From the NCBI GenBank assembly GCA_016699975.1, contig CP064994.1:65222-129221 (forward strand): 64,000 nt of DNA. Reading direction: 5' to 3'. Shown here piece by piece: positions 3,029 to 46,956 of this stretch. The number at the start of each line of letters is the position of its first letter. Positions within the stretch are counted from its first letter, which is position 1. A program made the translations under genes and the position numbers. This DNA comes from Candidatus Moraniibacteriota bacterium. Its GTDB lineage: Bacteria > Patescibacteriota > Minisyncoccia > Moranbacterales > UBA1568. The notes under the pieces are model-generated. The model ran no database searches and was not told the origin of the DNA. It saw only the letters and a list, made by a program, of their open reading frames with translations.

Positions 3029-3097
3029 CAAATATCCTTCCTTTCCCTTGCCCCGAAAGAGAGAAATGAATATTTTTGACTCCCGAAAGAAAAATAT

Positions 3098-3587
3098 ATG
3101 CGCATCCTCGGTATTGATCCTGGAACGGCGACCGTAGGATGGGGCATTCTCGAAGGAGACGGGGATCGAATGGTCGCCCTTGCCTACGGACACATTTCAA
3201 CGAGTCCCACACTCCCGCTTCCAGAGCGGATAGGCGAAATAGCACGTGACCTTCGAACCCTGTGTCGCCTTCACCATCCCGAAGAAGCCTCCGTCGAAAA
3301 AATATTCTTTTCAAAATCAAAAGACCGTGATTGCGGTGAGTCAAGCAAGGGGCGCTATTCTCTTGACGCTCGAAGAGCTTGGCATTAGGCTTTTCGAATA
3401 CACGCCGCTTCAGATCAAGCAATCACTCACAGGATATGGTCGCGCCGACAAACGACAAATGCAGCTCATGGTAAAAAGCGTTTTAAAACTCCATGAGATT
3501 CCCCGCCCCGACGACACAGCGGACGCGCTTGCAATCGCCCTCTGCCACAGAAACAGTCGCGCTATGAACACCATCCTCGGAAAGTAG
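3098..3587 (+). CDS. ruvC: Holliday junction resolvase RuvC (reading frame broken by +1 indel near 3313-3316)
   Basis: ORF 3098..3388 gives the RuvC N-terminus (MRILGIDPGTATVGWGIL). The C-terminal two thirds (KTVIAVSQARG...ADALAIALCH) reads in the next frame from about 3318. Removing one A from the A4 run restores FFSNQKTVIAV, which matches RuvC. Confidence 0.8.
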
Positions 3588-3589
3588 CC

Positions 3590-4471
3590 GTGCTGCGAAA
3601 AAGTTTTTCAAAATGCGACGAAAGAAACGCCTCTTCCCAGAATGACTCCGAAACACACTCACTTCCCTCTCCGTCTCGCGCGATCGAAAAGTTGCGACGC
3701 TCTCGAAGGAAGCCGTTTGCGAAAGAAGAATATTCCGCATCAAAAACATTTTTAGCAGCCTTCTCGAAAAATTTTCATCTTCCTTTATTTTCACGTTCCG
3801 AATCTATAACCTTGTTTCTTATGACGCTGCATCCCCTCTTTCTTAATTTTGTCGCCCAAGGAGTACCAATCGACACGATCCGCTATATTCTCATGTTTCC
3901 CCTCATCGTGACTTTAGTCGCCTTCTTTCGACAAGTCGTGGGTATCAAAGCGTTTGGTATTTATACGCCATCAATCGTCACGTTCGCATTTCTTGCATTC
4001 GATCCGGGCGGCCTCAAATATGGAGTCGCCATTTTTGTGAGCATCATTCTAGTCGGCATGCTCTCGCGACTTCTCCTTCGCAGACTCCGGATTCTCTATT
4101 TGCCGCGCGTCGCAATTTCTCTCACAATCGTCGCACTCGCCATTCTCGCCATTCTCGTCGCGGGCGGTTCACTTCATCGAACCGGCCTCGCTTCCGTTTC
4201 CATCTTCCCTCTCCTCATCATGATCACCCTTGTCGAAAAATTCGTTGCGACGCAAATCGAAAAAGGGGATAAAGTCGCCCTTATGCTTGCGGGCGAGACC
4301 CTTTTCATTTCCCTGGTCGGCTACTTCCTCGCGCGCTCGTCGACTATCGCAGAGTATCTCCTCGCCTTCCCCTGGATCGTCCTCCTCACGATTCCCGTCA
4401 ACATCTTTCTCGGACGATGGAGAGGACTGCGGCTCTCTGAGCTCTTGCGTTTTTCAAAGTTGCTGAAATAG
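3590..4471 (+). CDS. multi-pass membrane protein, 7TM_transglut-like (partner of RimK-like ligases)
   Basis: Six to seven predicted TM helices with an FRQVVGIKAFGIYTPSI-type motif recalling 7TM_transglut (PF14402). It abuts a RimK-like ATP-grasp gene. The N-terminal 77 aa are hydrophilic, so the true start may be the Met at 3821. Confidence 0.55.
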   Translation: MLRKSFSKCDERNASSQNDSETHSLPSPSRAIEKLRRSRRKPFAKEEYSASKTFLAAFSKNFHLPLFSRSESITLFLMTLHPLFLNFVAQGVPIDTIRYILMFPLIVTLVAFFRQVVGIKAFGIYTPSIVTFAFLAFDPGGLKYGVAIFVSIILVGMLSRLLLRRLRILYLPRVAISLTIVALAILAILVAGGSLHRTGLASVSIFPLLIMITLVEKFVATQIEKGDKVALMLAGETLFISLVGYFLARSSTIAEYLLAFPWIVLLTIPVNIFLGRWRGLRLSELLRFSKLLK

Positions 4472-4511
4472 GAGTGGTGCCCTTCCGTTTTCATTTGTTG
4501 TTCTCTCGACT

Positions 4512-5939
4512 ATGATCCCCCTCCTCGAAGCATGGAAAAAAAGTCGCGATATTCTGGGCATGAATGCGCGGAATCTCGATTACCTTCGCCCATACAACAA
4601 AAAGCGCGCCAAGCGATTCGCAGACGACAAAATAGCCTGCAAGCGCCTCCTCGCAAAAAACGAATTGCCGGTTCCCCTCCTCATCGCGCGCATCAAAACA
4701 CTCGATGATCTTGAAAACTTCGACTGGTCAAAACTTCCCGAGAGCTTCGCCCTCAAACCGAATCATGGATTCGGCGGCGAAGGCATTCTCGTCGTATACG
4801 GAAAAAAGAAAAATGAAGAACACACCTGGATTAAAGCGGACGGCTCCCTCATCCGCGTCGAGGATCTGAAAACGCATATTCGAAATATTTTGGACGGTTC
4901 ATTCTCTCTCGCAAACATGCCAGACTCGGCATTTTTCGAAGAGCGCCTCAAGCTCCTCAAACTCTTCAAGCCCTATTCGTGGAAAGGGATCCCCGACATT
5001 CGTGTTATCGTCTTTAACCGCGTCCCGGTGATGGCGATGCTTCGCCTCCCCACCAAAGAGTCAGGCGGGAAAGCGAATCTTCAGCACGGAGCCCTTGGAC
5101 TCGGTATCGATATGGCAAACGGCACTACAACGAGTGCTGTTCAGGGGTTCGGCGGCTTCGCGCGCTCAATAGACTGTGTCCCCGGCACGCGTCTCGTTCT
5201 CTCGGGTATCCGCATTCCTTTCTGGAAAGAAATTCTCCGTCTTGCAGTCGAGGCCCAAAATATTTCGGGACTTGGCTACCTGGGCGCCGACATCGCGATC
5301 GACCGCGACCGCGGCCCGGTCTTCCTGGAATTAAATGCGCGACCCGGACTTTCCATTCAACTTGCCAACCTCGACGGACTCAAGGGTCGCCTAACGCGCG
5401 TTTCGGGACTCAAAGTGAAGACGGCGGAGAAGGGGGTGCGAATGGGCATGGATCTCTTCGGCGGTGAAATCGAGGAAGAGATCGAGGAAATCTCCGGCAA
5501 GAAAATTATCGGCACCGTAGAGAAAGTAAAACTCATCGGCAAGAACGGAAAAGAAATCGAAGTCGAAGCCAAAATAGACACCGGCGCCGACTCTACCTCC
5601 ATCGACACGGAGCTTGCGAGAGAGTTGGGGTTTGGGGAAGTTATGAATTTCTTTGAAACTATTCCAAAGCCGGAAAATACAGAGAATCGCTCAACTCTTA
5701 GCGCACTCTCTGCGGAGTACGATCAAAAATATAAGCACGCTCATCCAGATCTTTCCGGCGTCGTTTTTGTATATGCTCCGAACGGCTTCACAATGAGACC
5801 AAAGATTCTCATCTCATTCTTTCTCCATGGTGCTGAGGTATCTTCGAGGGTAAGCATCATTGAAAGATCCCGCATGCAATACCCTATAATAATAGGACGG
5901 AGAGATCTCAAGAAATTTCTCATCGATTCAAATAAATAA
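4512..5939 (+). CDS. RimK-like ATP-grasp ligase (alpha-L-glutamate ligase-related) fused to C-terminal retropepsin-like PF05618-type domain
   Basis: The N-terminal MIPLLEAWKKSRDILGMNARNLDYLRPYN... matches the RLAN/TIGR02291 pattern, and ATP-grasp motifs are present (KPNHGFGGEGI, ELNARPG). The C-terminal domain carries DTGA (KIDTGADSTS) and a terminal YPIIIGRRDLKKFLID, typical of the RimK-associated retropepsin-like putative protease. Confidence 0.75.
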   Translation: MIPLLEAWKKSRDILGMNARNLDYLRPYNKKRAKRFADDKIACKRLLAKNELPVPLLIARIKTLDDLENFDWSKLPESFALKPNHGFGGEGILVVYGKKKNEEHTWIKADGSLIRVEDLKTHIRNILDGSFSLANMPDSAFFEERLKLLKLFKPYSWKGIPDIRVIVFNRVPVMAMLRLPTKESGGKANLQHGALGLGIDMANGTTTSAVQGFGGFARSIDCVPGTRLVLSGIRIPFWKEILRLAVEAQNISGLGYLGADIAIDRDRGPVFLELNARPGLSIQLANLDGLKGRLTRVSGLKVKTAEKGVRMGMDLFGGEIEEEIEEISGKKIIGTVEKVKLIGKNGKEIEVEAKIDTGADSTSIDTELARELGFGEVMNFFETIPKPENTENRSTLSALSAEYDQKYKHAHPDLSGVVFVYAPNGFTMRPKILISFFLHGAEVSSRVSIIERSRMQYPIIIGRRDLKKFLIDSNK

Positions 5940-5985
5940 GGGGCTTGAGAGTGCCTCTTATTCGAATTTAGCGGAAAGGTATTTT

Positions 5986-6915
5986 ATGAAAGTCTTATTT
6001 CTTCTTGGCCATCAATCAGCCAATAACCATTCAAAAAAATTCCAGAGTAAATTCAGAGATTTTTTTCAATACGCAAGCGAAAGAACTTCTATAAAATTTT
6101 ATATATCAAATATTGAAGACTATGATACGAAACAAAAGCTGTTCTCTCATGCATTTGTAAGAAAATGGAATTCGTGGGACAAAGAGTTCCTTGTAAAGCC
6201 AGATATTATTTACGATAAAACATCGTACTTCCTTTCTCAGAAAAATTTAATGGAAATAAAAGAGGATATTTCTCAAAATTTTCGCTTCCTCAACCCATTG
6301 GAATTCAATAGAATTCTTACTGATAAGTGGGAGACGTATACTGTCATTCCGGATATACATCCGAAAACCATTCTCTTTCAAGAGAACGATGACTCGAAAA
6401 AAATCTTGGATATATCATCTTCATTAGTTGTGATAAAGCCACGATACGGATTCGGTGGAAAAGGCGTCACTGTTTCAACAAAAGAAAATTTCAAGCCAAT
6501 AAAAACTCCTTTCATCGTGCAGGAATTTATCGAAACTAGTGCCGGCATACCAAACATAACAAAGGGTCGCCATGACCTTCGAATATTCCTCAAAAATGAA
6601 ACTCCATTCTACTCAATAATACGCTCCCCTCAAAAAGACCCTTATATCGCAAACATAAATTTCGGTGGCGCATTGAAAGTAGTGCCGCTCGAGAAGATTC
6701 CGAGATCAGCATTCAGAGTCATCAACACCATCAGCAAAACCTTTTCTCGTTTCCCTAAGAAGCTCTACTCAATCGATCTATTTTTTGATAGGAATCAAAA
6801 TCCTTGGGTGGTAGAATGTAATTCTCGTCCAGGAATCATCCTTCATAAGAGTGAGCTCCCTTATCGTGAATTCTATTACGATCACCTTCTTGATTTTTTT
6901 CAACAATCTCTATGA
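5986..6915 (+). CDS. second ATP-grasp family ligase (RimK/cyanophycin-synthetase-like)
   Basis: Motifs VVIKPRYGFGGKGV and VVECNSRPG are ATP-grasp hallmarks. The gene is AT-rich compared with its neighbours. An AGG-rich RBS precedes the ATG. Confidence 0.65.
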   Translation: MKVLFLLGHQSANNHSKKFQSKFRDFFQYASERTSIKFYISNIEDYDTKQKLFSHAFVRKWNSWDKEFLVKPDIIYDKTSYFLSQKNLMEIKEDISQNFRFLNPLEFNRILTDKWETYTVIPDIHPKTILFQENDDSKKILDISSSLVVIKPRYGFGGKGVTVSTKENFKPIKTPFIVQEFIETSAGIPNITKGRHDLRIFLKNETPFYSIIRSPQKDPYIANINFGGALKVVPLEKIPRSAFRVINTISKTFSRFPKKLYSIDLFFDRNQNPWVVECNSRPGIILHKSELPYREFYYDHLLDFFQQSL

Positions 6916-8183
6916 AGATAATAACTATTACTGGGACAAAGGGGAAAACCACCATAACAAGAGCTCTCAGTGCCGTGCTTCATCGATTTGGGGAAACGAC
7001 TCTTCGAGTAGATACGGATGGCTACTACATCAATGAAAAACAAGAAGGAACTCTCGAAGAGAGCAAAAATCTCTATGGCCTTGTTCCTACCGTCTCACCC
7101 GGGAAGTACCTCCTCTCTATGAAAAGATACTATCCAGATTTTGTTGCTATCCTTGAGGCAGCCCTTGGAAGCGGCGGAAAATCAGGAAGAGGCTATGGAC
7201 TTCATACTATAGGGATATTTTCCAACGTCCTCGAAGATCATATGGGTATAGGTAAAATAAGAACAAGGTTGGATATAGCAAAAAGAAAAAATTTTATTTT
7301 TTCAGGTATTGATGTGGGCGGCTATGCCATCTTCAATGCAGATGATCGACTTGTCTGTTCGCAATTAAAACAAATCCCCGATTTCCGTTCTGTCCATCTT
7401 GTTCCTTGCGGTATCTCAAATCGCTTTTTCGACATTGAAAATCACCTTCAAAATGGAGGAAAAGCAGTTACTATCGTCGATGATTCCATCGTCATTCGAG
7501 CAAGAGAAGGCGACCAAAAAATTCTTTCAGTAAAAGATGTTTCATGGACATTCAATGGAAAGTATAGACCCTCCGTAGAAAATCTTCTTTTTATCGTTGG
7601 GGGACTCTATGCCTTCTTCGAGGAAAAGATCCCTCAGAGAGCTTTGCAAATTCTCAAAGAGTATCACCTCAACAGAGACGGGGGGAGACTATCACTTTTC
7701 GAAAATAAAGATGGCATCAAAGTCTTAATAGATTTCGCGCACGAAAAATACTCACTTTCAGAAATTGCAAAACTCGCACATAAACTCAAGAAAAGTAAGA
7801 AGAATAAGACTATCGGGATTTTGCGGTTAGCGCCAGACAGAACCGATAAAATGATTTTCGAAACCGGAAAATTCATTGCCCCTTCTTTTGATCATTTGAT
7901 AATTTATGACAAAATAGATGGCGTTCATAAAATGAAATATATCGGTAAAAAAACAAATATCGTACGAAACATTGGTGAGGTTTCTGACATTTTCCTGAAA
8001 GGAGCTCTGAGTGCAAAGAGAAAAAATATGGTAGAGAAAATACTCCTTGAAGAAAACGCTGTAAGGAAGGCTATCAAAATAGCCTGCCCAGGAGATGTCA
8101 TAATTTATATATGCAATGACGATCATAAAAAAAGTATCACTTATATGCAAAAATATCTCCATGCTAGTAGAAGAAATTCGTAA
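6912..8183 (+). CDS. Mur ligase family protein resembling the C-terminal domain of cyanophycin synthetase CphA
   Basis: The N-terminal P-loop ITGTKGKTTITRAL matches the Mur-ligase GTNGKTT motif, and ILEAALGSGG...NVLEDHMG matches the CphA/MurE central-domain pattern. Its start overlaps the stop of the preceding ATP-grasp gene, implying translational coupling. Confidence 0.7.
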   Translation: MKIITITGTKGKTTITRALSAVLHRFGETTLRVDTDGYYINEKQEGTLEESKNLYGLVPTVSPGKYLLSMKRYYPDFVAILEAALGSGGKSGRGYGLHTIGIFSNVLEDHMGIGKIRTRLDIAKRKNFIFSGIDVGGYAIFNADDRLVCSQLKQIPDFRSVHLVPCGISNRFFDIENHLQNGGKAVTIVDDSIVIRAREGDQKILSVKDVSWTFNGKYRPSVENLLFIVGGLYAFFEEKIPQRALQILKEYHLNRDGGRLSLFENKDGIKVLIDFAHEKYSLSEIAKLAHKLKKSKKNKTIGILRLAPDRTDKMIFETGKFIAPSFDHLIIYDKIDGVHKMKYIGKKTNIVRNIGEVSDIFLKGALSAKRKNMVEKILLEENAVRKAIKIACPGDVIIYICNDDHKKSITYMQKYLHASRRNS

Positions 8184-8226
8184 GATCCTTATTACAGAAA
8201 GCTTTTGAATCTTTTATAGACTATTC

Positions 8227-8255
8227 TTGAACCCCCGCTTCCCTCGCGGTACAAT
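8227..8255 (+). promoter_or_regulatory. sigma70-like promoter TTGAAC-N17-TACAAT upstream of PBP gene
   Basis: TTGAAC (8227-8232) is followed by a 17-nt spacer and TACAAT (8250-8255), about 80 nt upstream of the PBP start. Confidence 0.4.
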
Positions 8256-8335
8256 GCCGGTACTTCCCAGAAAACACTCTTCTCAAAAGAAAGGGTAAAA
8301 GATATTCGAGAATACACACCCTCGTATTTTCTCCT

Positions 8336-11185
8336 ATGGATCACCTGAAAACGGTACTGAGAGAAGCTCGTGCTGCGTGGCGGCGGGAGCGAAATAATCC
8401 TCATTCGTTTGCATCCACGATAGCGACTTCGGCACCCGGAAGATTCTTCTCAAAGATTTTTGCACGACAAAAAATCGGCACGACATCCTTCATTCGCGGA
8501 CCCCTCGGCACTATGAATGTTTCTTCGAATACTCTTTCACGAACACCATCGCCGCGCGACCCCAAACCCCGCGCGGGATTTTGGAAATGGGTACTTCGAA
8601 TCGCAATTGGAATTTTTGTGGGAGGCTTCCTCGCGGTCGTCGGCGTTTTCGCCTATTTTGCAAAAGATCTGCCCAGCCCTGGAAAAGTGAACAGCCGATT
8701 TATCGCCGAGTCGACCAAAATTTTCGACCGCACCGGGACACACCTCCTCTACGAAGTTCACGGCGAGGAAAAACGAACGATTATTCCCTTTTCTGAAATG
8801 CCACAGGTAATCCGCGCCGCCACCATCACTTTGGAAGACCGGGATTTCTATAATCACTATGGTATCAAGCTCGATTCCATCCTCCGTGCCCTCTTCAAGG
8901 ACTTTGTCAAAGGCGGATCAAGGCAGGGCGGCTCCACAATTACGCAGCAGTTTGTAAAAAACTCCCTCCTCACGCCAGAGAAAACACTGACCCGAAAGAT
9001 AAAGGAAGCGATTCTGTCGATAGAGATGGAACAAAAATTTTCGAAAGATGAAATTCTCGCGATGTATTTGAACGAGATTCCCTACGGCGCCAATGCTTAT
9101 GGAATCGAAGCGGCTTCGCAAACTTTTTTCGGAAAGAACGCAAAAAATCTCACTGTTGATGAAGCGGCCCTTCTCGCCGTCCTCCCGAACGCTCCCACAT
9201 ACTATTCTCCGTACGGCTCCCACCTCGACGAACTGAAAGCGAGACAAAAAAATGCGCTTACCCAAATGGCCGCTCTCGGCTATATCACCAAAGAGGCCGC
9301 TGAAGAAGCAAAACAAGTGGAGACCCTCGACAAACTCGTGCCACAACGAGAAGCGATCGCTGCGCCGCACTTCGTCATGTATGTGAAGGAATATCTTGCC
9401 AGGCGCTACGGCGACGAAGAAATCGAGCAAGGCGGGCTGCGAGTCATTACCACTCTCGACTGGGACAAACAGCAAGCCGCAGAAAAAGCGGTTTCGGAAG
9501 GAGCCGAGAAAAATCTTCGCTACAATGCGGAAAATGCCGCGCTCGTTGCGATCGATCCGAAGACCGGACAAATTCTCGCTATGGTTGGTTCGAAAAATTA
9601 CTTCGATACCAAAATAGACGGGCAGGTGAACGTCACCATTCGCGACCGCCAGCCGGGATCCTCCTTTAAGCCTTACGTCTATCTCGCTGCGTTCACCAAG
9701 GGCTATGTGCCCGAGACAATTCTTTATGATGTGCCCACCGAATTTCCGACCGATGACGGAAAAAATTACGCGCCACAAAACTACGATGGAACATTTCATG
9801 GACCTGTCTCGCTCGCAAAAGCGCTCGGCGGATCCCTCAATGTCCCGGCTGTCAAAACGCTCTACTTAGTAGGAGTGAATGATGCCATCGAACTCTCAAA
9901 GAGTCTCGGCATCACCACTCTCACGGAGCCAAAGCGCTATGGCCTTTCTCTCGTTTTGGGAGGAGGCGACGTCAAACTCCTCGATCATGTAAGTGCCTAC
10001 GCAACGCTCGCAACGGGTGGCATACGACGGGAAAAAACTGCCATTCTTCGTATCGAAAACTCGAAGGGCGAAGTGCGGGAAGAATATACTCAGTCGCCTG
10101 GAGAGCGCGTCGTTGGCGAAAAATTTGTCGCCATGCTCGATTCCGTTCTCTCCGAGAACGGAAACCGAGCGTGGATCTTCGGGGAAAATAATCCTCTGCG
10201 GTTCAACAATCGAGCCGTCGTTGCCAAGACCGGTACTACCAACCTCTTTAAAGACGCCTGGACGGTTGGCTATACCCCTTCCCTGGCGGCAGGCGTCTGG
10301 GTAGGAAACAATGATGCCTCTCCCATGAAGCTCGGGGCCGACGGCTCCTATGTCGCCGCTCCCATTTGGCGAGCATTTATGGACAAGGCCCTCGAGAACA
10401 CCGGGACAGAAGAGTTTCCGAAATACCGTCCCGAAGAAGAAATCGCACCGCGCGACGAAAACGGCAACGTCAAAAAAGAAGAGCAAAAAGATGAGAATGC
10501 CGAACAAGCTCCTTCATCCGACACGACATCCAAAGGCGTTCCTGATCCCTTCGAAACCGTCTTCCCGAAAATTGAAAAGCCGCTTCTCGGTGGCTATATG
10601 GAAAAACAAGAAGCCCTCAAAGTCTGTCGCATCCCAGGGAAGGATGATGAATACTGTCTTCCGAGCAAATATTGCCCCGAGAGCGAAGAAGTGAAGCGGG
10701 ACTTCGTAAGCGCAAACGATATTTTGGCCTATGTGGATCGTGACGATCCAAGAGGATCGATCCCAGAAAAACCCGAGCGCGACCCGCAATACAAAGCCTG
10801 GCAAAAAGCTGCGAAAGATTGGTACCAAAAGGATCGCAAAAGAATTTTCTCCGCCCCGCCCGAAAAAGAATGTTCCGAAGAAGATTTCGGCTCCAAGTTC
10901 GATCCCGAGATCTCCCTCTCTGTTCCCGATGAAACAGACTCGTCTTCACTCTCTATTTCCGCAAAAGGAAAAGCGCCTTATGGCGCCGAATCACTCGAAA
11001 TATTTGTCGACGGCGAAAGAATCGCCTCGGACGGAGGAGCTTCACTCTCCACCGATTACTCCATTCCTGATGGAAAGCGAGGGAGCACTCTCTCGATCGA
11101 AGCACGACTCAAGGATAAACTCGGAAACGAAGCGAAAGATACGAAAGATGTCCGCACGAAAGCCCCTGAAACAACGACTCCGTAA
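8336..11185 (+). CDS. ponA: class A penicillin-binding protein (transglycosylase/transpeptidase) with long C-terminal extension
   Basis: A TM anchor is followed by the glycosyltransferase-51 motifs (EDRDFYNHYGI, RQGGSTITQQ) and the transpeptidase motifs (SSFKP, SLN, KTGT). The last ~250 aa are an additional Cys-containing, Ig-like region. An alternative start is the Met at 8513. Confidence 0.9.
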   Translation: MDHLKTVLREARAAWRRERNNPHSFASTIATSAPGRFFSKIFARQKIGTTSFIRGPLGTMNVSSNTLSRTPSPRDPKPRAGFWKWVLRIAIGIFVGGFLAVVGVFAYFAKDLPSPGKVNSRFIAESTKIFDRTGTHLLYEVHGEEKRTIIPFSEMPQVIRAATITLEDRDFYNHYGIKLDSILRALFKDFVKGGSRQGGSTITQQFVKNSLLTPEKTLTRKIKEAILSIEMEQKFSKDEILAMYLNEIPYGANAYGIEAASQTFFGKNAKNLTVDEAALLAVLPNAPTYYSPYGSHLDELKARQKNALTQMAALGYITKEAAEEAKQVETLDKLVPQREAIAAPHFVMYVKEYLARRYGDEEIEQGGLRVITTLDWDKQQAAEKAVSEGAEKNLRYNAENAALVAIDPKTGQILAMVGSKNYFDTKIDGQVNVTIRDRQPGSSFKPYVYLAAFTKGYVPETILYDVPTEFPTDDGKNYAPQNYDGTFHGPVSLAKALGGSLNVPAVKTLYLVGVNDAIELSKSLGITTLTEPKRYGLSLVLGGGDVKLLDHVSAYATLATGGIRREKTAILRIENSKGEVREEYTQSPGERVVGEKFVAMLDSVLSENGNRAWIFGENNPLRFNNRAVVAKTGTTNLFKDAWTVGYTPSLAAGVWVGNNDASPMKLGADGSYVAAPIWRAFMDKALENTGTEEFPKYRPEEEIAPRDENGNVKKEEQKDENAEQAPSSDTTSKGVPDPFETVFPKIEKPLLGGYMEKQEALKVCRIPGKDDEYCLPSKYCPESEEVKRDFVSANDILAYVDRDDPRGSIPEKPERDPQYKAWQKAAKDWYQKDRKRIFSAPPEKECSEEDFGSKFDPEISLSVPDETDSSSLSISAKGKAPYGAESLEIFVDGERIASDGGASLSTDYSIPDGKRGSTLSIEARLKDKLGNEAKDTKDVRTKAPETTTP

Positions 11186-11251
11186 CACAGAGGCGTGAGG
11201 AAGCACAAGAAGAAGAAAGACAGGAAGAAAACACCTGAATACTCAAAAAGA

Positions 11252-11295
11252 GCGCCCTTTCTCGTACTGTGCGAGAAAGGGCGCATTTCTCTTTC
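11252..11295 (+). terminator. rho-independent terminator (13-bp perfect stem, T-rich tail)
   Basis: Stem GCGCCCTTTCTCG, loop TACTGTG, stem CGAGAAAGGGCGC, then ATTTCTCTTTC. It lies 67 nt after the PBP stop. Confidence 0.6.
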
Positions 11296-11401
11296 AATGC
11301 TCTATTGATTACTCATCAATTCAATAAAATAATGTAAACAAAAGCGAATTTTGTGAAAGAAGAAAGGGTTCTTTTTGAAGAAATCTGAGCGTATTTCAAT
11401 A

Positions 11402-11426
11402 AATATAGGCCACAAATATAGGCCAC
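11402..11426. repeat. tandem direct repeat AATATAGGCCAC x2
   Basis: Two adjacent 12/13-nt copies sit in the 400-bp non-coding gap between convergent genes. Confidence 0.5.
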
Positions 11427-11698
11427 GGTAAGTTTGAGCAGTATCTCTTTTCGTTTCTCTTGCAAAAAAATGACAGAAAGTCATTCCTCTCGAGAATTTT
11501 TCGAAGAAACAAAAACATATTTCCTCGTACGAGATTCCTCGCATTTTCAATCACTTCTTCACCGGGGACAAGGCCTGTCCTAAGCAGCAACACGAGTATG
11601 GGGAATCACATTTTCTTGCCCACTCATGAGTTTTCTCCAACTCAATTGTTTTTACAAGAAACGCATCTTTTTCTTCCAGGACTCCTCTCAATTTCCTC

Positions 11699-13031: not shown

Positions 13032-13355
13032 TTACTTGCCGCCAAACTTCTTCGCAAGGGCGGCGAGCAAATCCGCGGAAGCCGGTTTCTGCCCTCCTTC
13101 CTCCTGAGGATTCGGGAGCGGATTCATCCCTGCTTGCCTCCGAATTCGATCAATTTTCTCCCTTTCTTTCGGATCTTTCGGAGGAAGCTTGTCCAGTTTC
13201 CCGTTTACCAGACGGAACCCGCAATCCGTTGCGCGAGCGCGAATATCTTCCATGATCGCTTCCGCCCACTCGGCAAGTTCCGCCGAATATTCTTTCTCGT
13301 CTTCCGGGGACTGCCAATACGAGCGGAGAGGAAACTCTTTTAGAGTCTCATCCAA
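13032..13355 (-). CDS. hypothetical protein (107 aa)
   Basis: Protein-like composition, and it lies in the same minus-strand operon. No recognisable domain. Confidence 0.4.
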   Translation of the reverse strand: MDETLKEFPLRSYWQSPEDEKEYSAELAEWAEAIMEDIRARATDCGFRLVNGKLDKLPPKDPKEREKIDRIRRQAGMNPLPNPQEEGGQKPASADLLAALAKKFGGK

Positions 13356-14809
13356 CTCATACAGGTCAGCCCGAACTCCATAAAAATATTTCTCGCCTCT
13401 TCAAAGGCGCGAACCGCCCTTTCATGGGCTGTGTTGGCAGCTTCCCAGCCTGCGACAATTCCCTGCCGGCGCGAAACTTCCAGCTCATACGCCTCCTTGC
13501 CTTCGCGGAGAATCTTCTCAATAATTCTCTCGCAAGCCTTTCCATAGGCGCTCTCCCATTTTTCCCGATCGGACTCGGGAACAAATTTGAGGCACCCGCG
13601 GTATGGGTTGTTGCGAGCAAGCTCACGGATCTCCTTCCGGGCATACTCACTCGCCTGCTCGAGAATTTCCCGAGCTCCCTGGAGCATCCCTTCTTCACTC
13701 ACTTCCTGAGAGAAGAAAAGTTTCTGCCGTTCTTCTCCGGAAAGCCCCCAGGAGATTACTCGCCTGGTCACCCAGGTCTCGTAACACCCCCCAGACCGAA
13801 ACCCATCATCGGACTCCGGATAACTCACCCACTGTCGAGATGAAACGGTTTCCATACCGATTTCCCCTGGAGCCTCGAAAGACGCTCGTTCCTTCTCCGC
13901 TTCGAACAGTTTCCGTACCGGTTCGGTTACGGAGAAAGTTTCTTCCGCCGCCTGTTCCGGCGACGGAATCGAACGCCTCATTCTTTCCGCGATTTCTCGC
14001 TGTTCGGCCGCCGGAACAAGTTCCCAGAGCTTGTCCGGACAACTAATCCAGGACCCTCGACCCGAGAGAACCTCGGGGGAGAAAGTCACCTCCGGAAACC
14101 GGCATAACCGGAATGTTCCGGTTATGCTAATTTCATTTACGGGGTTCCATCCTTCCGGGACCTTGGAAAGCGTACCCGGCACATACTCCGCCTCCCACGC
14201 CCGAGTCGCCTCTTCCCAGGAAAGGCGCTTTTCTCCGGGGAGTTTCGGCTCATCTAGTCCAACCCCTCCATACAGGAGGCGGTTCGGATCCATACACCGA
14301 TCGCCGACTCCATTCCAAAAAAATCGAACAGTGTTGTGCTTGCTCGATTCCGTCCGGTCAGGCAGACCGAAAAGCGCAAAGACTTTCCAGGGATCTGGTC
14401 CCTGGAAAACCTCGCGTCGATCCTTGACTTCCCGATACTGGCGGTTTTCCTCTGGTTCATTGGTAGGCGTCCCGCCTAAGTGGGACCAATCTTCGAATCC
14501 TTCTTCGACGCACCGCCATTCATGGCGGCGGAATCCGGAAATCGGTTCGCCGACCGCTATCCAACCAAACCGAGCTGGCCGGATCGGCCTTACAAAGAGA
14601 ACTCCTTTCCTCTCACCCGGCTTCGTTTCCCCAGTAATCTCCACAAGGAAGAGCCGATTTTCTTCCAGCTCGATACCCTTCGGGTTCCCCCGATTGGCGC
14701 GATCGACAAAAACGATTTTTTTAGGGACATCGCCCGCTTGAATTGTCCCTTTCCATCCATCATTTCCATTCGTCCACAAAATAAGTGCGATTTTTTTCAC
14801 GTTCACGAG
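13340..14809 (-). CDS. large hypothetical protein (~490 aa)
   Basis: A GTG start is preceded by GGAGGAG. Minus-strand composition is protein-like, whereas the overlapping plus-strand ORFs are S/R/P-rich antisense artefacts. No recognisable domain. Confidence 0.5.
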   Translation of the reverse strand, partial: LVNVKKIALILWTNGNDGWKGTIQAGDVPKKIVFVDRANRGNPKGIELEENRLFLVEITGETKPGERKGVLFVRPIRPARFGWIAVGEPISGFRRHEWRCVEEGFEDWSHLGGTPTNEPEENRQYREVKDRREVFQGPDPWKVFALFGLPDRTESSKHNTVRFFWNGVGDRCMDPNRLLYGGVGLDEPKLPGEKRLSWEEATRAWEAEYVPGTLSKVPEGWNPVNEISITGTFRLCRFPEVTFSPEVLSGRGSWISCPDKLWELVPAAEQREIAERMRRSIPSPEQAAEETFSVTEPVRKLFEAEKERASFEAPGEIGMETVSSRQWVSYPESDDGFRSGGCYETWVTRRVISWGLSGEERQKLFFSQEVSEEGMLQGAREILEQASEYARKEIRELARNNPYRGCLKFVPESDREKWESAYGKACERIIEKILREGKEAYELEVSRRQGIVAGWEAANTAHERAVRAFEEARNIFMEFGLTCMSWMRL

Positions 14810-14953
14810 AAAACTCCTCCGCGTTTTTAAAAAAACAGACAACTCTCTCCGCCTTCGATTGTTTTTGAAGTAATCAAAGGCGAGGTTGAGCGGGGAGGGA
14901 TGCGATATCACTGTATGCACCCTCCCTCCCGCTAGTACAGATCTAATCTGGCG

Positions 14954-20031: not shown

Positions 20032-22296
20032 TTATGTCGTCTCGCCAACCGAGGGCTTCACGATATGTTTTTGTACGAAACGAAGAAGATCTCCAAGCGT
20101 TTCTGAACGGCGCAGCTCATCGAGAAGTTCCCTGCGCGTCTCTCGCATATTCTCTGAGGAACTCTCTGGCATATCGCTCAAGACTCGAAAGAAATGTATG
20201 AGAAGCGGCAGAACCACAGACTTCGCATATTCTTGTTGCTCTTTGGCAGGGAGCGTCAGTACTTTTCCTGAAATGAATCCTTCCGACGAAGCAATCACCT
20301 GATCTTCGAGCATTTCCATTCCCGCAGCAGGAAAATATGTGCTATAGGGTTCTCGAAAAGAGAGCTTTGTTTGTTCTTCGCCCGCCTTTCCCGAACGCCA
20401 TCCGAAACTTCGTGAATCCGTGGGTGCTACGAGAAACGAGAAGGCCAGTTTTCTCTTTTCAGATTTCGTGAGTATTCCCTGGAGAATCGGCCTCCGAACA
20501 GATAAAAGTGCCTGAGCGGCAGAAGATTTGTAGACTTGTCCACAGACGCTCCGACGGAGCGCCGGGTCGTTATTGAGCCTGTCCTGAATCGCTTCAAGAA
20601 TATCTTTCAATAGTGGCAACAGTTTTTCGTGTTGGTGCACATCAAAAAAATCTACATCTGGCATTTTCTCATGAGCGACTTCTTCGAGATGCTCAAGGAG
20701 CGCCGCCAGAATATCATACCGCGCTTCGTTGGGATGACTCACCTTCATCCCACGTATCGTAAGAATCGCCGCGATTTCTTCGAGAGCGTACGGAAGAAAT
20801 TTTTTCCGCTCTTCTTTTGAAAGGGGCGACGATCGTTTTTCGGAAAGAAGGGGGTTCGAAACCAGTTGACCAAAAGCATGTGCCCAAACGGGGGTTTCCG
20901 AAAGCTCGAACAGAAGTTTCCGGTATCGTTCAAATTGTTCACGTTTTTCCCCCGAAAGAAACGCCTCTGACGAAACAAATTCAAGATTATCGAGATGAAA
21001 CGCCTTTTTCATTCGTTCGTATCGCTCGAGTTCGACACGTGAGACGGCGCGAGCAGCATCAAGCGACTCTTCCCGCGTCATACCGTGGAGTGCCTCATAG
21101 TTCCAGGCCTGCGTTTCTGCGAAAAGAGGAATCGTAATCGGTCGCCCCTCCGACTGCAACCAAAAAAGAAAATTATAGAGATCAATCGGTTTTTCGCTTT
21201 GGCCTTCCCCATCGAGAACTTTTTTCCACTTGAACCATTCTTTAGAAATACCGAACGGAAAATATATTGGTTTGTCCGTTTCTGGAATTTCTGATTTCCG
21301 ATGTCTTACTTCGTTTTCAAAGTCCGAGAGAAATCCCTTGGGGAGGGTCGCGGATTCTCTTCCATACAACAATTCTTCCGATTTGTAGCGAACATGTCGG
21401 AGAAGCGTCTTGGCCGTCTCAAGCTTCTTCATAATTTCGGTGAATCGGCTTGTATTTTCATCCTTCCCTCCAATTCCATGTTCGAGAAAAAATCGGAATT
21501 CATCAATGAGTGACGCCACTCCTTCTTCGTCATAAAATTTCCCGGGAATCCAGCTTTCCTCATCGAAGAGTTCTCCTTCCATAAATTCATTCTCTTTCAT
21601 CTCGACCTCATCCATATCATCCCACTTCCCAACTCGCTGCTTCTCTTCCTTTTCCAAGAGAAGCGTTTTATTTCTTCGCTCAATCATCCACCGGTTGAGT
21701 TCAATTCTTTTCCTGGTTATTTCATCAAAGAGGCTCTTGAGTCGATTCATCGTATTCTTCATTTCAAAGAGCAGCGATTTGCGCGCCCTGATATCCGTCT
21801 CTATTTCTTCAGTAATCTTCTCTGCATCAATCGGAAGTTCGGAATGCAGGCGATCTTTCACCTCAAGAAAAATCGCGTTCGACTTTGCCAGAAAAGCGCC
21901 CGGCAGCCGATCTTGAATCCCGAACTCAAATGGAAAAATCTCCCGGAAAATTTCTGAGAACTCTTGTGTCCAACCCATTGAGGCGTCTGCAAACTCAACA
22001 TATTTAGCAAAGACGGAATCGGCTGCTCCTTGCGAGAGTCGCTCACCGATCTCAAGAATAACGTCTCCCATTTTTTCACCACCCTCCTCAAGAGAAAGGA
22101 AAGACTGAAGACGATCGTGAGCATTGCCATGTGCCAGAAAATCCCGTACACGGTCCGCTTCCGCTTCACTTTTTTCGAACAAAAAATTGAGAAATTGCAC
22201 CTGGGTTCCCACAGAAAAATCCTCGAGCGCTATTCCAAAATGATCCTCGATTTTTTTGCGGAATAGTGGCTCAAGCAGAGTTGAATAGAGGGTCAC
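20032..22296 (-). CDS. large hypothetical protein (754 aa)
   Basis: Long ORF with a 26-nt overlap onto the upstream 325-aa ORF, forming an operon. No recognisable domain. Confidence 0.55.
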   Translation of the reverse strand: MTLYSTLLEPLFRKKIEDHFGIALEDFSVGTQVQFLNFLFEKSEAEADRVRDFLAHGNAHDRLQSFLSLEEGGEKMGDVILEIGERLSQGAADSVFAKYVEFADASMGWTQEFSEIFREIFPFEFGIQDRLPGAFLAKSNAIFLEVKDRLHSELPIDAEKITEEIETDIRARKSLLFEMKNTMNRLKSLFDEITRKRIELNRWMIERRNKTLLLEKEEKQRVGKWDDMDEVEMKENEFMEGELFDEESWIPGKFYDEEGVASLIDEFRFFLEHGIGGKDENTSRFTEIMKKLETAKTLLRHVRYKSEELLYGRESATLPKGFLSDFENEVRHRKSEIPETDKPIYFPFGISKEWFKWKKVLDGEGQSEKPIDLYNFLFWLQSEGRPITIPLFAETQAWNYEALHGMTREESLDAARAVSRVELERYERMKKAFHLDNLEFVSSEAFLSGEKREQFERYRKLLFELSETPVWAHAFGQLVSNPLLSEKRSSPLSKEERKKFLPYALEEIAAILTIRGMKVSHPNEARYDILAALLEHLEEVAHEKMPDVDFFDVHQHEKLLPLLKDILEAIQDRLNNDPALRRSVCGQVYKSSAAQALLSVRRPILQGILTKSEKRKLAFSFLVAPTDSRSFGWRSGKAGEEQTKLSFREPYSTYFPAAGMEMLEDQVIASSEGFISGKVLTLPAKEQQEYAKSVVLPLLIHFFRVLSDMPESSSENMRETRRELLDELRRSETLGDLLRFVQKHIVKPSVGETT

Positions 22297-28857: not shown

Positions 28858-30306
28858 ATGGCGCTCGCGAGACGGATTGCTTACAATGTTGTCTTTAACT
28901 CGATTGCTAAAATCGCTTCGACCGTGCTCGCGCTCGTCGCGATTGGTTTTATCACGCGCTACCTCGGCAAAGAAGGATTTGGGGATTATGCGACCGTGCT
29001 CGCTTTCTTTTCGCTCTTTAGCTCTTTGGCCGACCTCGGGCTTTCCACCCTCCTCGCACGAGAAATCTCGCGCAAAGACGCACCGGAGCCCACTATCATA
29101 GGAAATGTCCTCGCACTTCGCCTGGGAACCTCGGCAAGTGTTTTTTTGATCGCGCTCGTCTTCATTCCCTTTCTTCCCTATGGATCTGATCTCCGTTTGG
29201 GAATAGCCCTTGCCGCCGCCTCATTCCTCGTCGCATCTTCTTCCGGAATCTTAAATGGTATTTTTCAGAAACGCCTCATCATGTTCCAGGTGGCGGCGAT
29301 AGAGCTTACCGGGAAAGTGCTTCAACTTGGTATTATCATTCTTGCGGTTTTCTTCGATTGGGGATTCATCGCCATCGTTTCGGCGCTTTTTGCCTCTCTC
29401 TTCTGGAATGCCATTTCCGTGTACATTTTCGCTCGGCGAGCCATCTCCTTTCACCTCTCTTTTGACGTTTCCTTCTGGAAATCTTTCCTTCGCGAATCAG
29501 CACCGATCGGACTCATTTCCATCGTCACGTTCACCTATTTCAAAATGGACACTATTTTCCTTTCGGTTTTACAAGGAAGTGCCGATGTCGGTATCTATAA
29601 CGCCGCGTACAAGATTATCGAAAATCTCACCTTTTTCCCCGCAATGATCGCCGGTCTCGTTCTTCCGCTCTTCTCTCGATACATTCTTCAGGAACCAGAA
29701 AAGTTTCGGATAGTAGCCGATAAGACCTTTAAAGTGTTCGTCGCTTTTGCTGCCCCCCTCTCCATTGGAGGATTTTTTCTCGCTGAAGATCTCGCGCGAC
29801 TTATCGGAGGCTCGGAATTCGTTGAGTCTGCGGCGCCGCTTCGCTTTCTCATATTCGCGCTCGGGGCCATTTTCTTTGGGAATTTTTTTAATGCCATTCT
29901 CATCGCAGGAAACAAGCAAAAATATCTTCTCATTGTCCTCTCCGGCGTCGCGCTCATAAATATCGCAGCAAACCTCGTGTTGATTCCACAATTTTCTTAT
30001 ATGGCGGCCGCATTTACTTCGCTCGGTACGGAAAGTCTCGTGGCATTCGCGACCGCCTTTCTTGCCTCGAAACTCCTCGGATATCGCCCTTCATTCGAAG
30101 GTATCATTGGAATACTTTTTTCCGCATTCTTGATGGGCAGCATCCTCTTTTTCTTTCAGAATCTCCCCTTTCCTTTGCTGCTCCTCTTTGGAATAGTCTC
30201 CTATCTCCTCTCCCTCTCACTGACCGGTTCAATTACCAAAAATGAACTCGAACTTCTCTTTTCCCGATCATCCTCTTCGAAAGAAGCATCTCTCCTCGAG
30301 AACTAA
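28858..30306 (+). CDS. polysaccharide biosynthesis protein / Wzx-type flippase (MOP superfamily)
   Basis: About 12-14 TM helices and an N-terminal pattern (IAYNVVFNSIAKIASTVLALVAIGFITRYLGKEGFGDY) typical of Wzx/PST family proteins. Confidence 0.75.
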   Translation: MALARRIAYNVVFNSIAKIASTVLALVAIGFITRYLGKEGFGDYATVLAFFSLFSSLADLGLSTLLAREISRKDAPEPTIIGNVLALRLGTSASVFLIALVFIPFLPYGSDLRLGIALAAASFLVASSSGILNGIFQKRLIMFQVAAIELTGKVLQLGIIILAVFFDWGFIAIVSALFASLFWNAISVYIFARRAISFHLSFDVSFWKSFLRESAPIGLISIVTFTYFKMDTIFLSVLQGSADVGIYNAAYKIIENLTFFPAMIAGLVLPLFSRYILQEPEKFRIVADKTFKVFVAFAAPLSIGGFFLAEDLARLIGGSEFVESAAPLRFLIFALGAIFFGNFFNAILIAGNKQKYLLIVLSGVALINIAANLVLIPQFSYMAAAFTSLGTESLVAFATAFLASKLLGYRPSFEGIIGILFSAFLMGSILFFFQNLPFPLLLLFGIVSYLLSLSLTGSITKNELELLFSRSSSSKEASLLEN

Positions 30307-30342
30307 GGAGAAACAACGAAGACTCATCCTCTCCGAACGCTC

Positions 30343-31200
30343 ATGAATGTTCCTCCTCTTGTTTTCATCGTGATCCTGAACTATAACGCTCGTGCGACAA
30401 TTTTCGACTGCCTGAAGTCAGTGCTCGGGCTCGAAGCGGCACGATTCGAAGTCCTGGTCGTTGATAATTTCTCGACAGACGGTTCGTTCGACGAACTCTC
30501 GAAACGGTTTCCCAAGATCCATACCCTCCAAAACGGTGAAAATGGGGGATTTGCGCGCGGCGTAAATTCTGGGATCCGCGCCGCTCTTCAGAAAGGCGCC
30601 GATTTCATCTGGCTTCTGAACCCAGACACCCTTGTTCAAAAAGACGCTCTCTTTCGCCTTCTCGAGTTCGCGACAAAGTATCCGGACGTTGGCTTAGTAT
30701 CGCCCCTTCTTCTCTCACCCGAAACAAACACTGTATGGTTCGGGGGGGGCACGTACCAGTTTATTCGACAGCGAGTTGTCCATACTCCCCCCACAAGAAA
30801 ACGAGGCGCATACGAAACCGACTTCATTTCGGGCTGCGCTCCGCTCATTCACAAAGAGGTCTTCCGAAAAATCGGGCTCTTCGACGAAACCTTCTTCCTC
30901 TACTATGAAGATGCTGATTTTTCCCTTCGAGCCAAAAAAGCAGGATTTCGACTCATAGTACTTCCGGAAGCTCTTGTGTTTCACTCCGAAGCAAGCACTA
31001 CTCGACCAGAAAAACTTTTTTTTCTCGTCCGTTCCGGTCTCTTCTTTTTTTGGAAACATACACCGCTCTTTCTTCGTCCGCTTTTTTGGCTCATTATTTT
31101 TTCTTCGCTTCGCCCGAGTTTCTTTCCGGAGCGTACTTTCTCGCAAGAATCAAGAGAAGGACGATTCCCTAAAACGCGCCTTCCGAGAATTTCTCTATGA
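30343..31200 (+). CDS. family 2 glycosyltransferase
   Basis: FIVILNYN...VVDN.STDGS is followed by the DxD-type region and YEDADFSLRAKKAGFRL. Confidence 0.8.
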   Translation: MNVPPLVFIVILNYNARATIFDCLKSVLGLEAARFEVLVVDNFSTDGSFDELSKRFPKIHTLQNGENGGFARGVNSGIRAALQKGADFIWLLNPDTLVQKDALFRLLEFATKYPDVGLVSPLLLSPETNTVWFGGGTYQFIRQRVVHTPPTRKRGAYETDFISGCAPLIHKEVFRKIGLFDETFFLYYEDADFSLRAKKAGFRLIVLPEALVFHSEASTTRPEKLFFLVRSGLFFFWKHTPLFLRPLFWLIIFSSLRPSFFPERTFSQESREGRFPKTRLPRISL

Positions 31201-31997
31201 ATAAAGATTCTCCTGATATTTCCTTTCTCATTGTCAATTACCGAAGTGCCTCGCGCTTACCGGCTTGCTTTTCTTCTCTGAAAAATCTGGCGTTGCCGCT
31301 TTCCTTCGAGTGTATTGTTGCAAACAATGACCCTTCGGAAGAAAATGCCCTTCAGGATCTCCAAAAAGATTTTTCGTTTGATCTCCTACCGCTTTCCAAA
31401 AATCGCGGGTTCGGCCGAGCCGTCAACATGGCAGCGAGACGATCTCGGGGGACAGTTCTCTTCCTCTTAAATCCCGATGCCCGCTTTCTTTCGGGAAACA
31501 TGACGGAGCTGGTTCGCTGCTTCGAAAAGAATCCGTCGCTCGGAGCAGTCGGCATGCAACTTCTCGAAGAGAGGGATCGTCCTCAACCATGGAGTTTCGG
31601 CTCTCCGGTTACGCTCCTTCGAATCGCAAGAAATCATCTCAGTCGACCTCAAGAAATTTTACGAGAAACCCCGGAACACTTCGTTGAAACGTCCTGGGTA
31701 AGCGGAGCCGCACTCGCGATCCCACGCTCACTATTTTTTCGAATTCAGGGTTTCGACGAGCGGTTCTTCCTCTATTTCGAAGATATCGATCTGTGTACCC
31801 GCGTACAAATGCTCGGGAAAAAAGTGGGTCTCTTCCCATCGGCGCGAGTTCTTCATGTCGGAGGAGCAAGCATGCCCAAAAAGCGACTGCAAAAAAAATG
31901 GTACTACCGTTCCCAGGATTTCTATTTTCAAAAGCACCGTCCTCCATACGAACAATTTCTCCTCAAAATTCTCCGAAAATGCTTCGGGAAATACTGA
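31197..31997 (+). CDS. family 2 glycosyltransferase
   Basis: FLIVNYRS...NNDPSEEN, GFGRAVN and FFLYFEDIDLCTRVQMLGKKV are present. Its start overlaps the previous gene. Confidence 0.8.
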   Translation: MNKDSPDISFLIVNYRSASRLPACFSSLKNLALPLSFECIVANNDPSEENALQDLQKDFSFDLLPLSKNRGFGRAVNMAARRSRGTVLFLLNPDARFLSGNMTELVRCFEKNPSLGAVGMQLLEERDRPQPWSFGSPVTLLRIARNHLSRPQEILRETPEHFVETSWVSGAALAIPRSLFFRIQGFDERFFLYFEDIDLCTRVQMLGKKVGLFPSARVLHVGGASMPKKRLQKKWYYRSQDFYFQKHRPPYEQFLLKILRKCFGKY

Positions 31998-32101
31998 ACC
32001 GTTCCGCGAAAATTTTTGAAACATTTTCCGCTTCCAATAGAAAGGCTGAGAGAAAGAGAGGAAAAGAGGTGTTTCTCAATCGAGACTGTAAGGCGCTTCA
32101 T

Positions 32102-33481: not shown

Positions 33482-33537
33482 AATCCCTTTCCAGGAAATA
33501 CGGGCAAATAAGAAAAGCCAACCCTTGTCTCAAGAAA

Positions 33538-46944: not shown

Positions 46945-46956
46945 GGGGGAAGAAAA

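Follow-up and report, generated by a model that had tools for sequence, protein, structure and literature searches.

A stretch of 64,000 nucleotides from a Candidatus Moraniibacteriota bacterium (GenBank CP064994.1, positions 65,222 to 129,221; called here the window, with positions counted from its first letter) carries on its plus strand four consecutive open reading frames (ORFs), all of them present in the sequence, that encode a putative amidoligase system. They specify a seven-transmembrane (7TM) protein (gene 1), an ATP-grasp ligase fused to a retropepsin-like domain (gene 2), another ATP-grasp ligase (gene 3) and a Mur-type ligase (gene 4). An initial annotation, made from the letters alone, had described these genes as one compact set for peptide or poly-amino-acid ligation. 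Matches in Pfam and NCBIfam bore out most of the domain assignments, but the synteny of related genomes did not support the unity of the set. Genes 1 and 2 form a vertically inherited core pair in conserved surroundings, and genes 3 and 4 are a strain-variable cassette of low G+C content whose contents are exchanged between relatives. The statements made below on the context of the core pair rest on 80 related genome loci, and the cassette counts on 71 loci with a readable downstream region.

Gene 1 (3821–4471, plus strand) encodes a membrane protein of 216 amino acids. Its start had been placed at GTG 3590, but ATG 3821 is the most likely one, since the 77 amino acids encoded by 3590–3820 are conserved in none of the 80 loci, either as protein or as DNA, and an independent gene call begins the gene at the equivalent of 3821. 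The interval from ruvC to gene 1 (3588–3820) is consequently described here as a non-coding spacer. The upstream ruvC (3096–3587) is itself read in two frames, with a 2-nt deletion near 3311 in a T5/A5 homopolymer run. An independent Logan assembly that carries the same locus (L001) is otherwise identical over the 600 nt aligned around ruvC and encodes an intact RuvC of 163 amino acids; rather than a pseudogene, the split frame of the window probably reflects an assembly error at the homopolymer.

The protein encoded by gene 1 matches the Pfam family PF14402 (7TM_transglut; E = 2e-29, 103 bits), whereas the NCBIfam model of RloB (NF052267) is matched only at positions 298–507 of 508 (87 bits, cut-off 900). 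It is an RloB-type 7TM module devoid of both the ectodomain and the transglutaminase domain. Hydropathy analysis reveals six clear transmembrane segments and a weaker seventh one and, together with the positive-inside pattern, predicts an N-out/C-in topology, with a cytoplasmic tail rich in lysine and arginine (GRWRGLRLSELLRFSKLLK). Homologues from other phyla of the Candidate Phyla Radiation (CPR) begin with a signal peptide, which fixes the N-out orientation, followed by either a PKD-containing ectodomain (about 500–560 amino acids) or a short linker. No transglutaminase domain was matched in the long CPR homologues, the PKD domain being present instead. All forms of the 7TM homologue are closed by the cytoplasmic C-terminal motif G(R/K)W(T)GLRLxE(Y/L)xRF.

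Gene 2 (4512–5939, 475 amino acids) has neither a signal peptide nor, like genes 3 and 4, transmembrane segments in the hydropathy analysis. The N-terminal domain (residues 1–320; 4512–5471, plus strand) is an RloC-like ATP-grasp ligase that matches PF14397 far above threshold (E = 7e-64, 216 bits, cut-off 31) and the 'alpha-L-glutamate ligase-like' model TIGR02291 at E = 3.5e-82 (275.9 bits, cut-off 314.2). Gene 2 clearly belongs to this clade but, at the threshold set by NCBI, does not rank as an equivalog. The invariant ATP-grasp residues are K82, the GFGGEG stretch at 86–91, D260, E273 and N275. A Glu-rich linker (residues 317–330; 5460–5501, plus strand), GGEIEEEIEEISGK, is invariant or nearly so in Moranbacteria-type homologues. 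That it serves as a pseudo-substrate or self-cleavage site is speculation.

The C-terminal domain of gene 2 (residues 333–475; 5508–5939, plus strand) resembles the retropepsins RloA and RimB. As a single sequence it is recognized poorly: PF05618 reaches 24 bits, under the cut-off of 27, and the RloA models give 17–33 bits over the last 140 residues or so, against cut-offs of 210–280. A profile of the domain family, in turn, retrieves the RloA structures 9g58 (3.8e-11) and 9g59 (4e-10), Lpg0085 (2pma, 1e-7) and, weakly, DDI1. The active-site triplet D356-T357-G358, encoded at 5577–5585, and G462, the glycine of the retropepsin IIGRxD motif, are invariant among homologues; K354, R429 and R452 are nearly so, and in the alignment they coincide with basic residues conserved in the RloA structures. 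The AlphaFold model has a mean predicted local distance difference test score (pLDDT) of 63, low at the linker and 70–93 in the retropepsin part, from an alignment of low diversity. Its N-terminal part matches RimK, and its C-terminal part matches Lpg0085, RloA, a foamy-virus protease and DDI1. The predicted structure therefore agrees with an ATP-grasp plus retropepsin protein, as had been proposed, but it is a poor model and was taken as weak support only, beside the profile-to-PDB result. Taken together, the profile-to-PDB matches, the invariant DTG and the fold of the model confirm the retropepsin domain. The matches of genes 1 and 2 to PF14402, PF14397, TIGR02291 and the retropepsin structures likewise uphold the proposed link to 7TM/ATP-grasp/PF05618 amidoligase systems.

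The initial annotation had regarded the fusion of ligase and retropepsin as unusual. The fusion is real, but this architecture is common to more than 100 homologues of gene 2 (64–82% identity, mostly of about 438–500 amino acids) and has counterparts in loci with the labels Woese-, Doudna-, Shapiro- and Collierbacteria; in Moranbacteria and other phyla of the CPR it is the rule. An insertion of about 45 amino acids in the retropepsin domain is present in the Moranbacteria-type homologues and in several other CPR lineages but not in the Woesebacteria-type ones. The last part of the protein (residues 376–475) diverges independently of the N-terminal domain, with 33–68% identity to relatives as compared with 69–83%. 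The idea that this half of the retropepsin co-varies with the Mur ligase or with the type of cassette was rejected on the identity pattern of these residues, which are 38–40% identical to the window in the Mur-bearing loci L083, L086 and L024 and 59–68% in the Mur-less L003, L004 and L005.

Synteny sets the core pair apart from what follows it. A 7TM gene immediately precedes the fusion gene in almost all of the 80 loci, the exceptions being those without upstream DNA. Moranbacteria keep the order ruvB-bPH-yebC-ruvC-7TM-fusion-slot-pbp1A, in which the slot, occupied in the window by genes 3 and 4, lies directly upstream of pbp1A and on the same strand in most loci. No pbp1A was detected beside the locus in most of the loci that are not of the Moranbacteria type (for instance those labelled Woese-, Shapiro- and Collierbacteria). 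With respect to the nearest genomes, gene 1 is 87–90% identical, gene 2 72–81% and PBP1A 73–77%. Gene 3 does not exceed 33% identity except in L083 (56%), and gene 4 is absent from these genomes, again with the exception of L083 (68%). The horizontal acquisition suggested for the whole set thus fits genes 3 and 4, but not genes 1 and 2, which are syntenic and 70–90% identical in the closest relatives. The same ruvB-yebC-7TM-fusion-pbp1A synteny, at 60–87% identity to the window, was also seen in L004, L006, L009, L013 and many more records titled 'uncultured Bdellovibrionales' or 'Gammaproteobacteria' (TPA_asm / binchicken metagenome-assembled genomes), labels that look wrong.

At least one extra ATP-grasp gene lies behind the core in 70 of the 71 loci (one in 35, two in 29 and three in 6), a Mur ligase in 5 and a family 4 glycosyltransferase (GT4) in 7. 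The 111 ATP-grasp proteins of these cassettes fall into 45 clusters at 40% identity, while gene 2 shows 42–82% identity across the same loci. Moreover, five genomes whose gene-2 ligase domains are at least 80% identical have four different cassette compositions. The cassette of L003 consists of two RimK-like ATP-grasps and that of L004 of two ATP-grasps; L055 has two ATP-grasps and an unknown protein of 654 amino acids, L006 a GT4, an unknown protein and an ATP-grasp of 487 amino acids, and L024 a Mur ligase and an ATP-grasp. L083 combines an ATP-grasp similar to gene 3 with a Mur ligase and a third ATP-grasp, no remnant of which was found between gene 4 and pbp1A in the window.

The slot differs from the core in base composition, too. 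The G+C content of the window drops from about 0.50 to 0.33–0.44 between approximately 5600 and 8200, and the cassette is poorer in G+C than the core in 65 of the 71 loci (median difference −4.4 points; Wilcoxon p = 5e-12), the window showing the most extreme drop of all of them (−12.6 points). The G+C profile and the blocks of nucleotide homology delimit a segment of about 5640–8600 that has been replaced between close relatives. Homology to L003 and L055 ends at 5870–5885 and restarts at 8607–8640, and homology to L006 and L083 ends at 5639, inside the retropepsin domain. The left edge thus lies near 5640 or near 5880 depending on the relative, and the right edge about 270 nt inside pbp1A. 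A 10-bp hairpin (5935–5962, plus strand; −13.4 kcal/mol, z = −2.86 versus shuffles) covers the stop codon of gene 2; downstream of it come a weak U tract and then a Shine-Dalgarno-like site, GGAAAGG, 7 nt before gene 3. Placed where the core gives way to the cassette, this hairpin may act as a partial terminator or as a stabiliser. Scans of the sequence for promoter and terminator consensus motifs gave the same counts as shuffled sequence.

Gene 3 (5986–6915, plus strand; 309 amino acids, G+C 0.36) is the first gene of the cassette. Its family matches in Pfam and NCBIfam are weak but consistent (YheCD, RimK, GSH-S, MptN), and its AlphaFold2 model (pLDDT 92.4) has RimK (4iwx, 6e-15), GshB and ArgX/LysX as top structural matches. 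Among the 31 homologues found (best identity 68%), K151, D264 and E277 are invariant and N279 is nearly invariant. Neither the cyanophycin synthetase model TIGR02068 nor the CphA1 sequences of the PDB matched gene 3, and CphA1 was not among its top 50 structural matches. Gene 3 is therefore a RimK/GshB/LysX-like ATP-grasp ligase without specific similarity to the G domain of CphA, so that only the first half of its earlier description as RimK/cyanophycin-like holds.

Gene 4 (6912–8183, plus strand; 423 amino acids, G+C 0.39) overlaps gene 3 by 4 nt (ATGA), readable in the sequence, and is translationally coupled to it, as had been stated. Its Pfam domains are Mur_ligase_M and Mur_ligase_C only, and the protein begins at the P-loop ITGTKGKTT. 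It matches positions 481–860 of TIGR02068 (E = 8.6e-56, 189 bits, cut-off 850) and residues 490–871 of CphA1 in structure 7wac, that is, the whole M domain (Mcore and Mlid), whereas MurE models do not exceed 63 bits (cut-offs 257–586). Residues K12, T13, T35, E82, R259 and H277 correspond to K499, T500, T522, E558, R731 and H748 of TeCphA1 and are invariant or nearly so throughout the family; the NADD and DxAH motifs are also kept. The reading of gene 4 as a CphA-like Mur ligase is thus well founded. In contrast to MurC-F, gene 4 has no detectable N-terminal UDP-binding domain and lies outside any mur/dcw context, its neighbours being ligase genes and pbp1A only. Two contexts that would have pointed to ordinary families had been named beforehand, a mur operon and rpsF; the former was not found at the locus, nor the latter in the 64-kb window. 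Pfam detected no MurT-specific DUF1727 domain in gene 4, and no GatD-type glutamine amidotransferase was matched among the neighbouring proteins scanned.

A gene-4 profile was searched exhaustively against 1.84 billion representative proteins. About 100 stand-alone proteins of 400–440 amino acids were retrieved at E < 1e-50, and the next-best matches, at about 186 bits, were the M domains (residues ~481–865) of CphA-like proteins of 870–900 amino acids. Gene 4 therefore belongs to a distinct stand-alone family, to which the CphA M domain is the closest relative so far characterised. As yet uncharacterised themselves, these ligases of the CphA-M type form about 100 clusters at 50% identity and are candidate enzymes for making side-chain isopeptide bonds. 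The same search returned P0366, P0368-P0370 and P0377, proteins of about 600–650 amino acids with a full M-domain match from residue ~200–240, which may combine G and M domains while lacking the N domain of CphA, and would then stand midway from CphA1 to the stand-alone proteins.

Genes 3 and 4 had been said to reproduce the domain order of CphA split across two ORFs, and they could be regarded as a two-polypeptide cyanophycin synthetase that makes Asp-Arg cyanophycin as a nitrogen store. Gene 4 agrees with this: as in CphA1 (7LG5, 7WAC), it has a whole M domain, the six ATP/Mg residues and an ATP-grasp gene immediately upstream to which it is coupled, and outside its own family it is nearest to CphA-like proteins. 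Gene 3 does not, being closest to RimK, GshB and LysX. Furthermore, gene 4 lacks an N domain as well as a fused G domain and has about 420 amino acids, as opposed to ~870–900 in CphA1. The gene-4 family carries a lysine in place of the adenine-stacking N497 of CphA1, no cyanophycinase is encoded nearby, and the family occurs in Rlo-like, RimK/RimB-like or glycan loci and not in cyanophycin metabolism, with an ATP-grasp partner that varies in type and position from locus to locus. A cyanophycin synthetase at this locus is, hence, highly improbable.

A metagenome scan with the gene-4 alignment was swamped by the generic P-loop pattern and gave about six true family members, and the genomic contexts of gene-4 relatives were obtained by exact-protein look-ups instead. 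In L083, L085, L086 and L024 the relative occupies the same slot behind the 7TM/fusion core. L087 and L088 (Magasanikbacteria) have the Mur ligase with a RimK/GSH-S ATP-grasp, standing alone, and L089 and L090 (Andersenbacteria) have it with a RimK-like ATP-grasp inside a glycan cluster (GT2/GT4/GT9/YfhO/deacetylase). In L092, L094 and L096 the order is Mur ligase, stand-alone PF05618 retropepsin and RimK-like ATP-grasp. A RimK-type ATP-grasp adjoins the gene-4 relative in L024, L083-L092, L094 and L096, and L093 is the sole context examined in which a neighbouring ATP-grasp went undetected. Two small ORFs (84 and 88 amino acids; G+C 0.23–0.27) lie directly upstream of the Mur and ATP-grasp pair in L087 (7444–7991). 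They have neither acidic C-termini nor informative family matches, and could be substrates or partners of the pair.

The Pfam matches of the locus L094 include PF05618 (2.8e-16) and a genuine RimK with its RimK_N domain (1.4e-54), and the gene order over 4731–11611 is dnaJ, ATP-grasp, a 365-aa unknown protein, gene-4-like Mur ligase, RimB-like retropepsin, RimK and DUF192. In this order a stand-alone ligase of the CphA-M type is associated with a canonical pair of RimK and RimB. The product of RimK is alpha-linked poly-Glu, and it might be asked whether the locus of the window is simply a RimK/RimB-type system that modifies ribosomal protein S6. Both have a cytoplasmic ATP-grasp enzyme of the alpha-L-glutamate-ligase type and a cytoplasmic retropepsin (RimB in S6 trimming, the fused domain here), gene 3 is structurally nearest to RimK, and L094 brings a gene-4 relative next to the real pair. 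However, genes 2 and 3 score 41 and 39 bits with the RimK model TIGR00768, whose cut-off is 143, and neither of them matches the RimK_N domain (PF18030) in Pfam. The ligase of gene 2 belongs to the RloC-like TIGR02291/PF14397 group and has an obligatory membrane partner, the 7TM protein, while no link to rpsF was found. S6 modification is accordingly very unlikely to be the function of these genes.

Another question is whether the four genes belong to one system at all. Genes 1 and 2 could be a self-contained Rlo-like module and genes 3 and 4 an independently mobile ATP-grasp and Mur module, inserted by chance into a recombination-prone slot ahead of pbp1A and acting on another substrate. The sharp G+C break (0.50 to 0.36–0.39), the hairpin at the gene-2 stop codon, the complete lack of gene 4 in most of the nearest relatives and the core-free Mur and ATP-grasp pairs of Magasanikbacteria and Andersenbacteria would all be explained. 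On the other hand, the slot behind the fusion holds amidoligases in 70 of the 71 loci, even in CPR phyla without an adjacent pbp1A, which makes chance insertion hard to accept, and relatives of gene 4 recur together with a RimB-like retropepsin and a RimK in unrelated arrangements. Recurrence beside RimK-type ATP-grasps, three times with a RimB-like retropepsin as well, supports a single pathway. Two unrelated systems are thus an unlikely explanation.

The reading that we prefer, with roughly even confidence, is that the locus is a CPR version of the Rlo or RimK-RimB type of amidoligase system and that its four proteins act on one acidic, branched product. The ATP-grasp enzymes would lengthen an alpha-linked acidic chain, rich in Glu or Asp, on an acceptor at the membrane, on its cytoplasmic side. 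Gene 4 would use a side-chain carboxylate of this chain to attach an amino acid or an amine, in the manner of the CphA1 M domain, and so give a branched isopeptide. The fused retropepsin would trim or free the chain, and the 7TM partner would anchor the ligase and relay either the product or a signal to the envelope. What the analysis demonstrates is which domains are present, that their catalytic residues are intact, that the core is syntenic, that cassettes turn over, and that Mur ligases, RimK-type enzymes and retropepsins recur together. A product shared by the four proteins, its acidic and branched nature, and its export or display by the 7TM protein are things we infer.

Among the closest precedents is rloABC of Pseudomonas aeruginosa (Lormand et al. 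2025, mBio; PMC12239564), in which an RloC-type ATP-grasp, a PF14402 7TM module and a PF05618 retropepsin occur together; this domain triad is, therefore, already known. RloA and RimB cleave poly-Glu, in runs of at least 8 Glu, and deletion of rloB or rloC suppresses the defects of rloA1-3, from which it follows that the ligase and the membrane protein make what the protease removes (PMC12239564). With RloA, the retropepsin of gene 2 shares the DTG active site and the conserved basic residues. However, RloA is a secreted protein with a signal peptide, while the retropepsin of the window is fused to the C-terminus of a cytoplasmic ligase. RloB has an inactive transglutaminase ectodomain, which the 7TM protein of the window lacks, CPR forms having either no ectodomain or a PKD-containing one. 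Besides, one to three extra ligase genes lie behind the core here, unlike in rloABC, and the system occurs in CPR, whereas RloB has been reported as 96% proteobacterial (PMC12239564). As for the Mur ligase, the M domain of CphA1 attaches Arg to the terminal Asp by way of the beta-carboxylate of that Asp (PMC9427784).

Several points weigh against the preferred reading. Since RloA is secreted and the retropepsin of gene 2 is cytoplasmic, the Pseudomonas model is not directly transferable. K354, R429 and R452 are placed on the poly-Glu-binding residues of RloA by alignment pattern only, the structural model of gene 2 is poor, and the acidic specificity of the substrate is inferred. The G+C break and the stop-codon hairpin are compatible, too, with genes 3 and 4 being a separate transcription unit with a function of its own, and the Mur and ATP-grasp pair also exists without the 7TM/fusion core, alone in Magasanikbacteria and within a glycosyltransferase cluster in Andersenbacteria. 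No product, acceptor or substrate gene has been identified. Small ORFs of the window were inspected as precursor or carrier peptides without any convincing candidate, and none of the four proteins matched the anti-phage defence models of PADLOC.

The acceptor is the main point in which another explanation departs from the preferred one. The ligases could tailor peptidoglycan by adding or branching residues of the stem peptide or cross-bridge, PBP1A would polymerise the modified units, and the different cassettes would correspond to different cross-bridge chemistries. Both types of ligase have precedents in the modification of stem peptides in Gram-positive bacteria, namely the ATP-grasp D-aspartate ligase and the Mur-like MurT, and in most Moranbacteria loci the slot immediately precedes pbp1A. 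In addition, the rlo mutants of Pseudomonas are altered in the shape of their cells, in osmotic tolerance and in their sensitivity to beta-lactams, and rloABC is induced by VxrB, a cell-wall-stress regulator of Vibrio (PMC12239564). Nevertheless, pbp1A was undetected near most non-Moranbacteria-type loci, and gene 4 scores far higher with the CphA M domain (189 bits) than with MurE (63 bits), neither the DUF1727 domain nor the N-terminal UDP-binding domain of Mur ligases being detected in it. Peptidoglycan tailoring is accordingly considered rather improbable.

With regard to the destination of the product, the swapping of cassettes, their low G+C content and the presence of GT4 genes are reminiscent of surface-antigen loci and suggest, by analogy, a product that reaches the envelope. 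O-antigen and capsule loci likewise have conserved flanks, a low-G+C centre and an enzyme content that differs between close relatives; in contrast to them, the variable enzymes here are mostly ATP-dependent peptide ligases, and few cassettes carry a GT4. A bolder proposal, which we regard as doubtful, is that of a lineage-wide, ribosome-independent 'peptide-coding' locus of CPR, in which a fixed membrane/ligase/protease core and rapidly exchanged ATP-grasp and Mur-type ligases would produce a short, strain-specific, branched surface peptide or glycopeptide. Such a locus would amount to O-antigen variation in peptide form, moulded by the interactions of these episymbionts with hosts or phages.

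A three-gene amidoligase system composed of a 7TM-transglutaminase, an ATP-grasp and a PF05618 protein, the same three domain families as here, is said to have been predicted by Iyer, Abhiman, Burroughs and Aravind (2009, Mol Biosyst), reportedly for peptide ligation with a membrane component. To our knowledge, that prediction comprised no CPR fusion, accessory-ligase cassette or CphA-M-type Mur ligase. Our literature search found no description of the fusion architecture of CPR or its 7TM-only partner, nor of the obligatory accessory-ligase cassette and its turnover or the stand-alone CphA-M-type family. Since the cassette turns over in the way of surface-antigen loci, a non-ribosomal peptide structure seems to diversify at the level of strains, which, according to the same search, is undescribed for CPR. 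The conservation of the core pair at 60–80% identity across Moranbacteria genomes of about 1 Mb means that it likely matters for envelope biology in these host-attached organisms. With ligase and protease in one protein, a 7TM-only partner and accessory ligases, the locus offers a compact system for the heterologous reconstitution of Rlo function.

Other features of the window were also recorded. Minus-strand ORFs at 13340–14920, 20032–22296, 37619–40315 and 45502–49233 (480–898 amino acids) have no Pfam match at E <= 1e-4, and ORF 46957–49233 lies within a second stretch of low G+C content (0.38 at 48–50 kb). A surface-polysaccharide block at 28858–34845, with strongly negative AT skew, encodes a Wzx-type flippase (Polysacc_synt, 1.5e-30) and two adjoining membrane proteins similar to Wzy_C/O-antigen ligases (4.7e-22 and 1.6e-16). 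Finally, a TraG/VirB4-like P-loop ATPase (PF19044, 3.3e-27) is encoded on the minus strand at 42228–44033 and may be part of the type IV secretion or competence-like machinery that has been reported for Patescibacteria.

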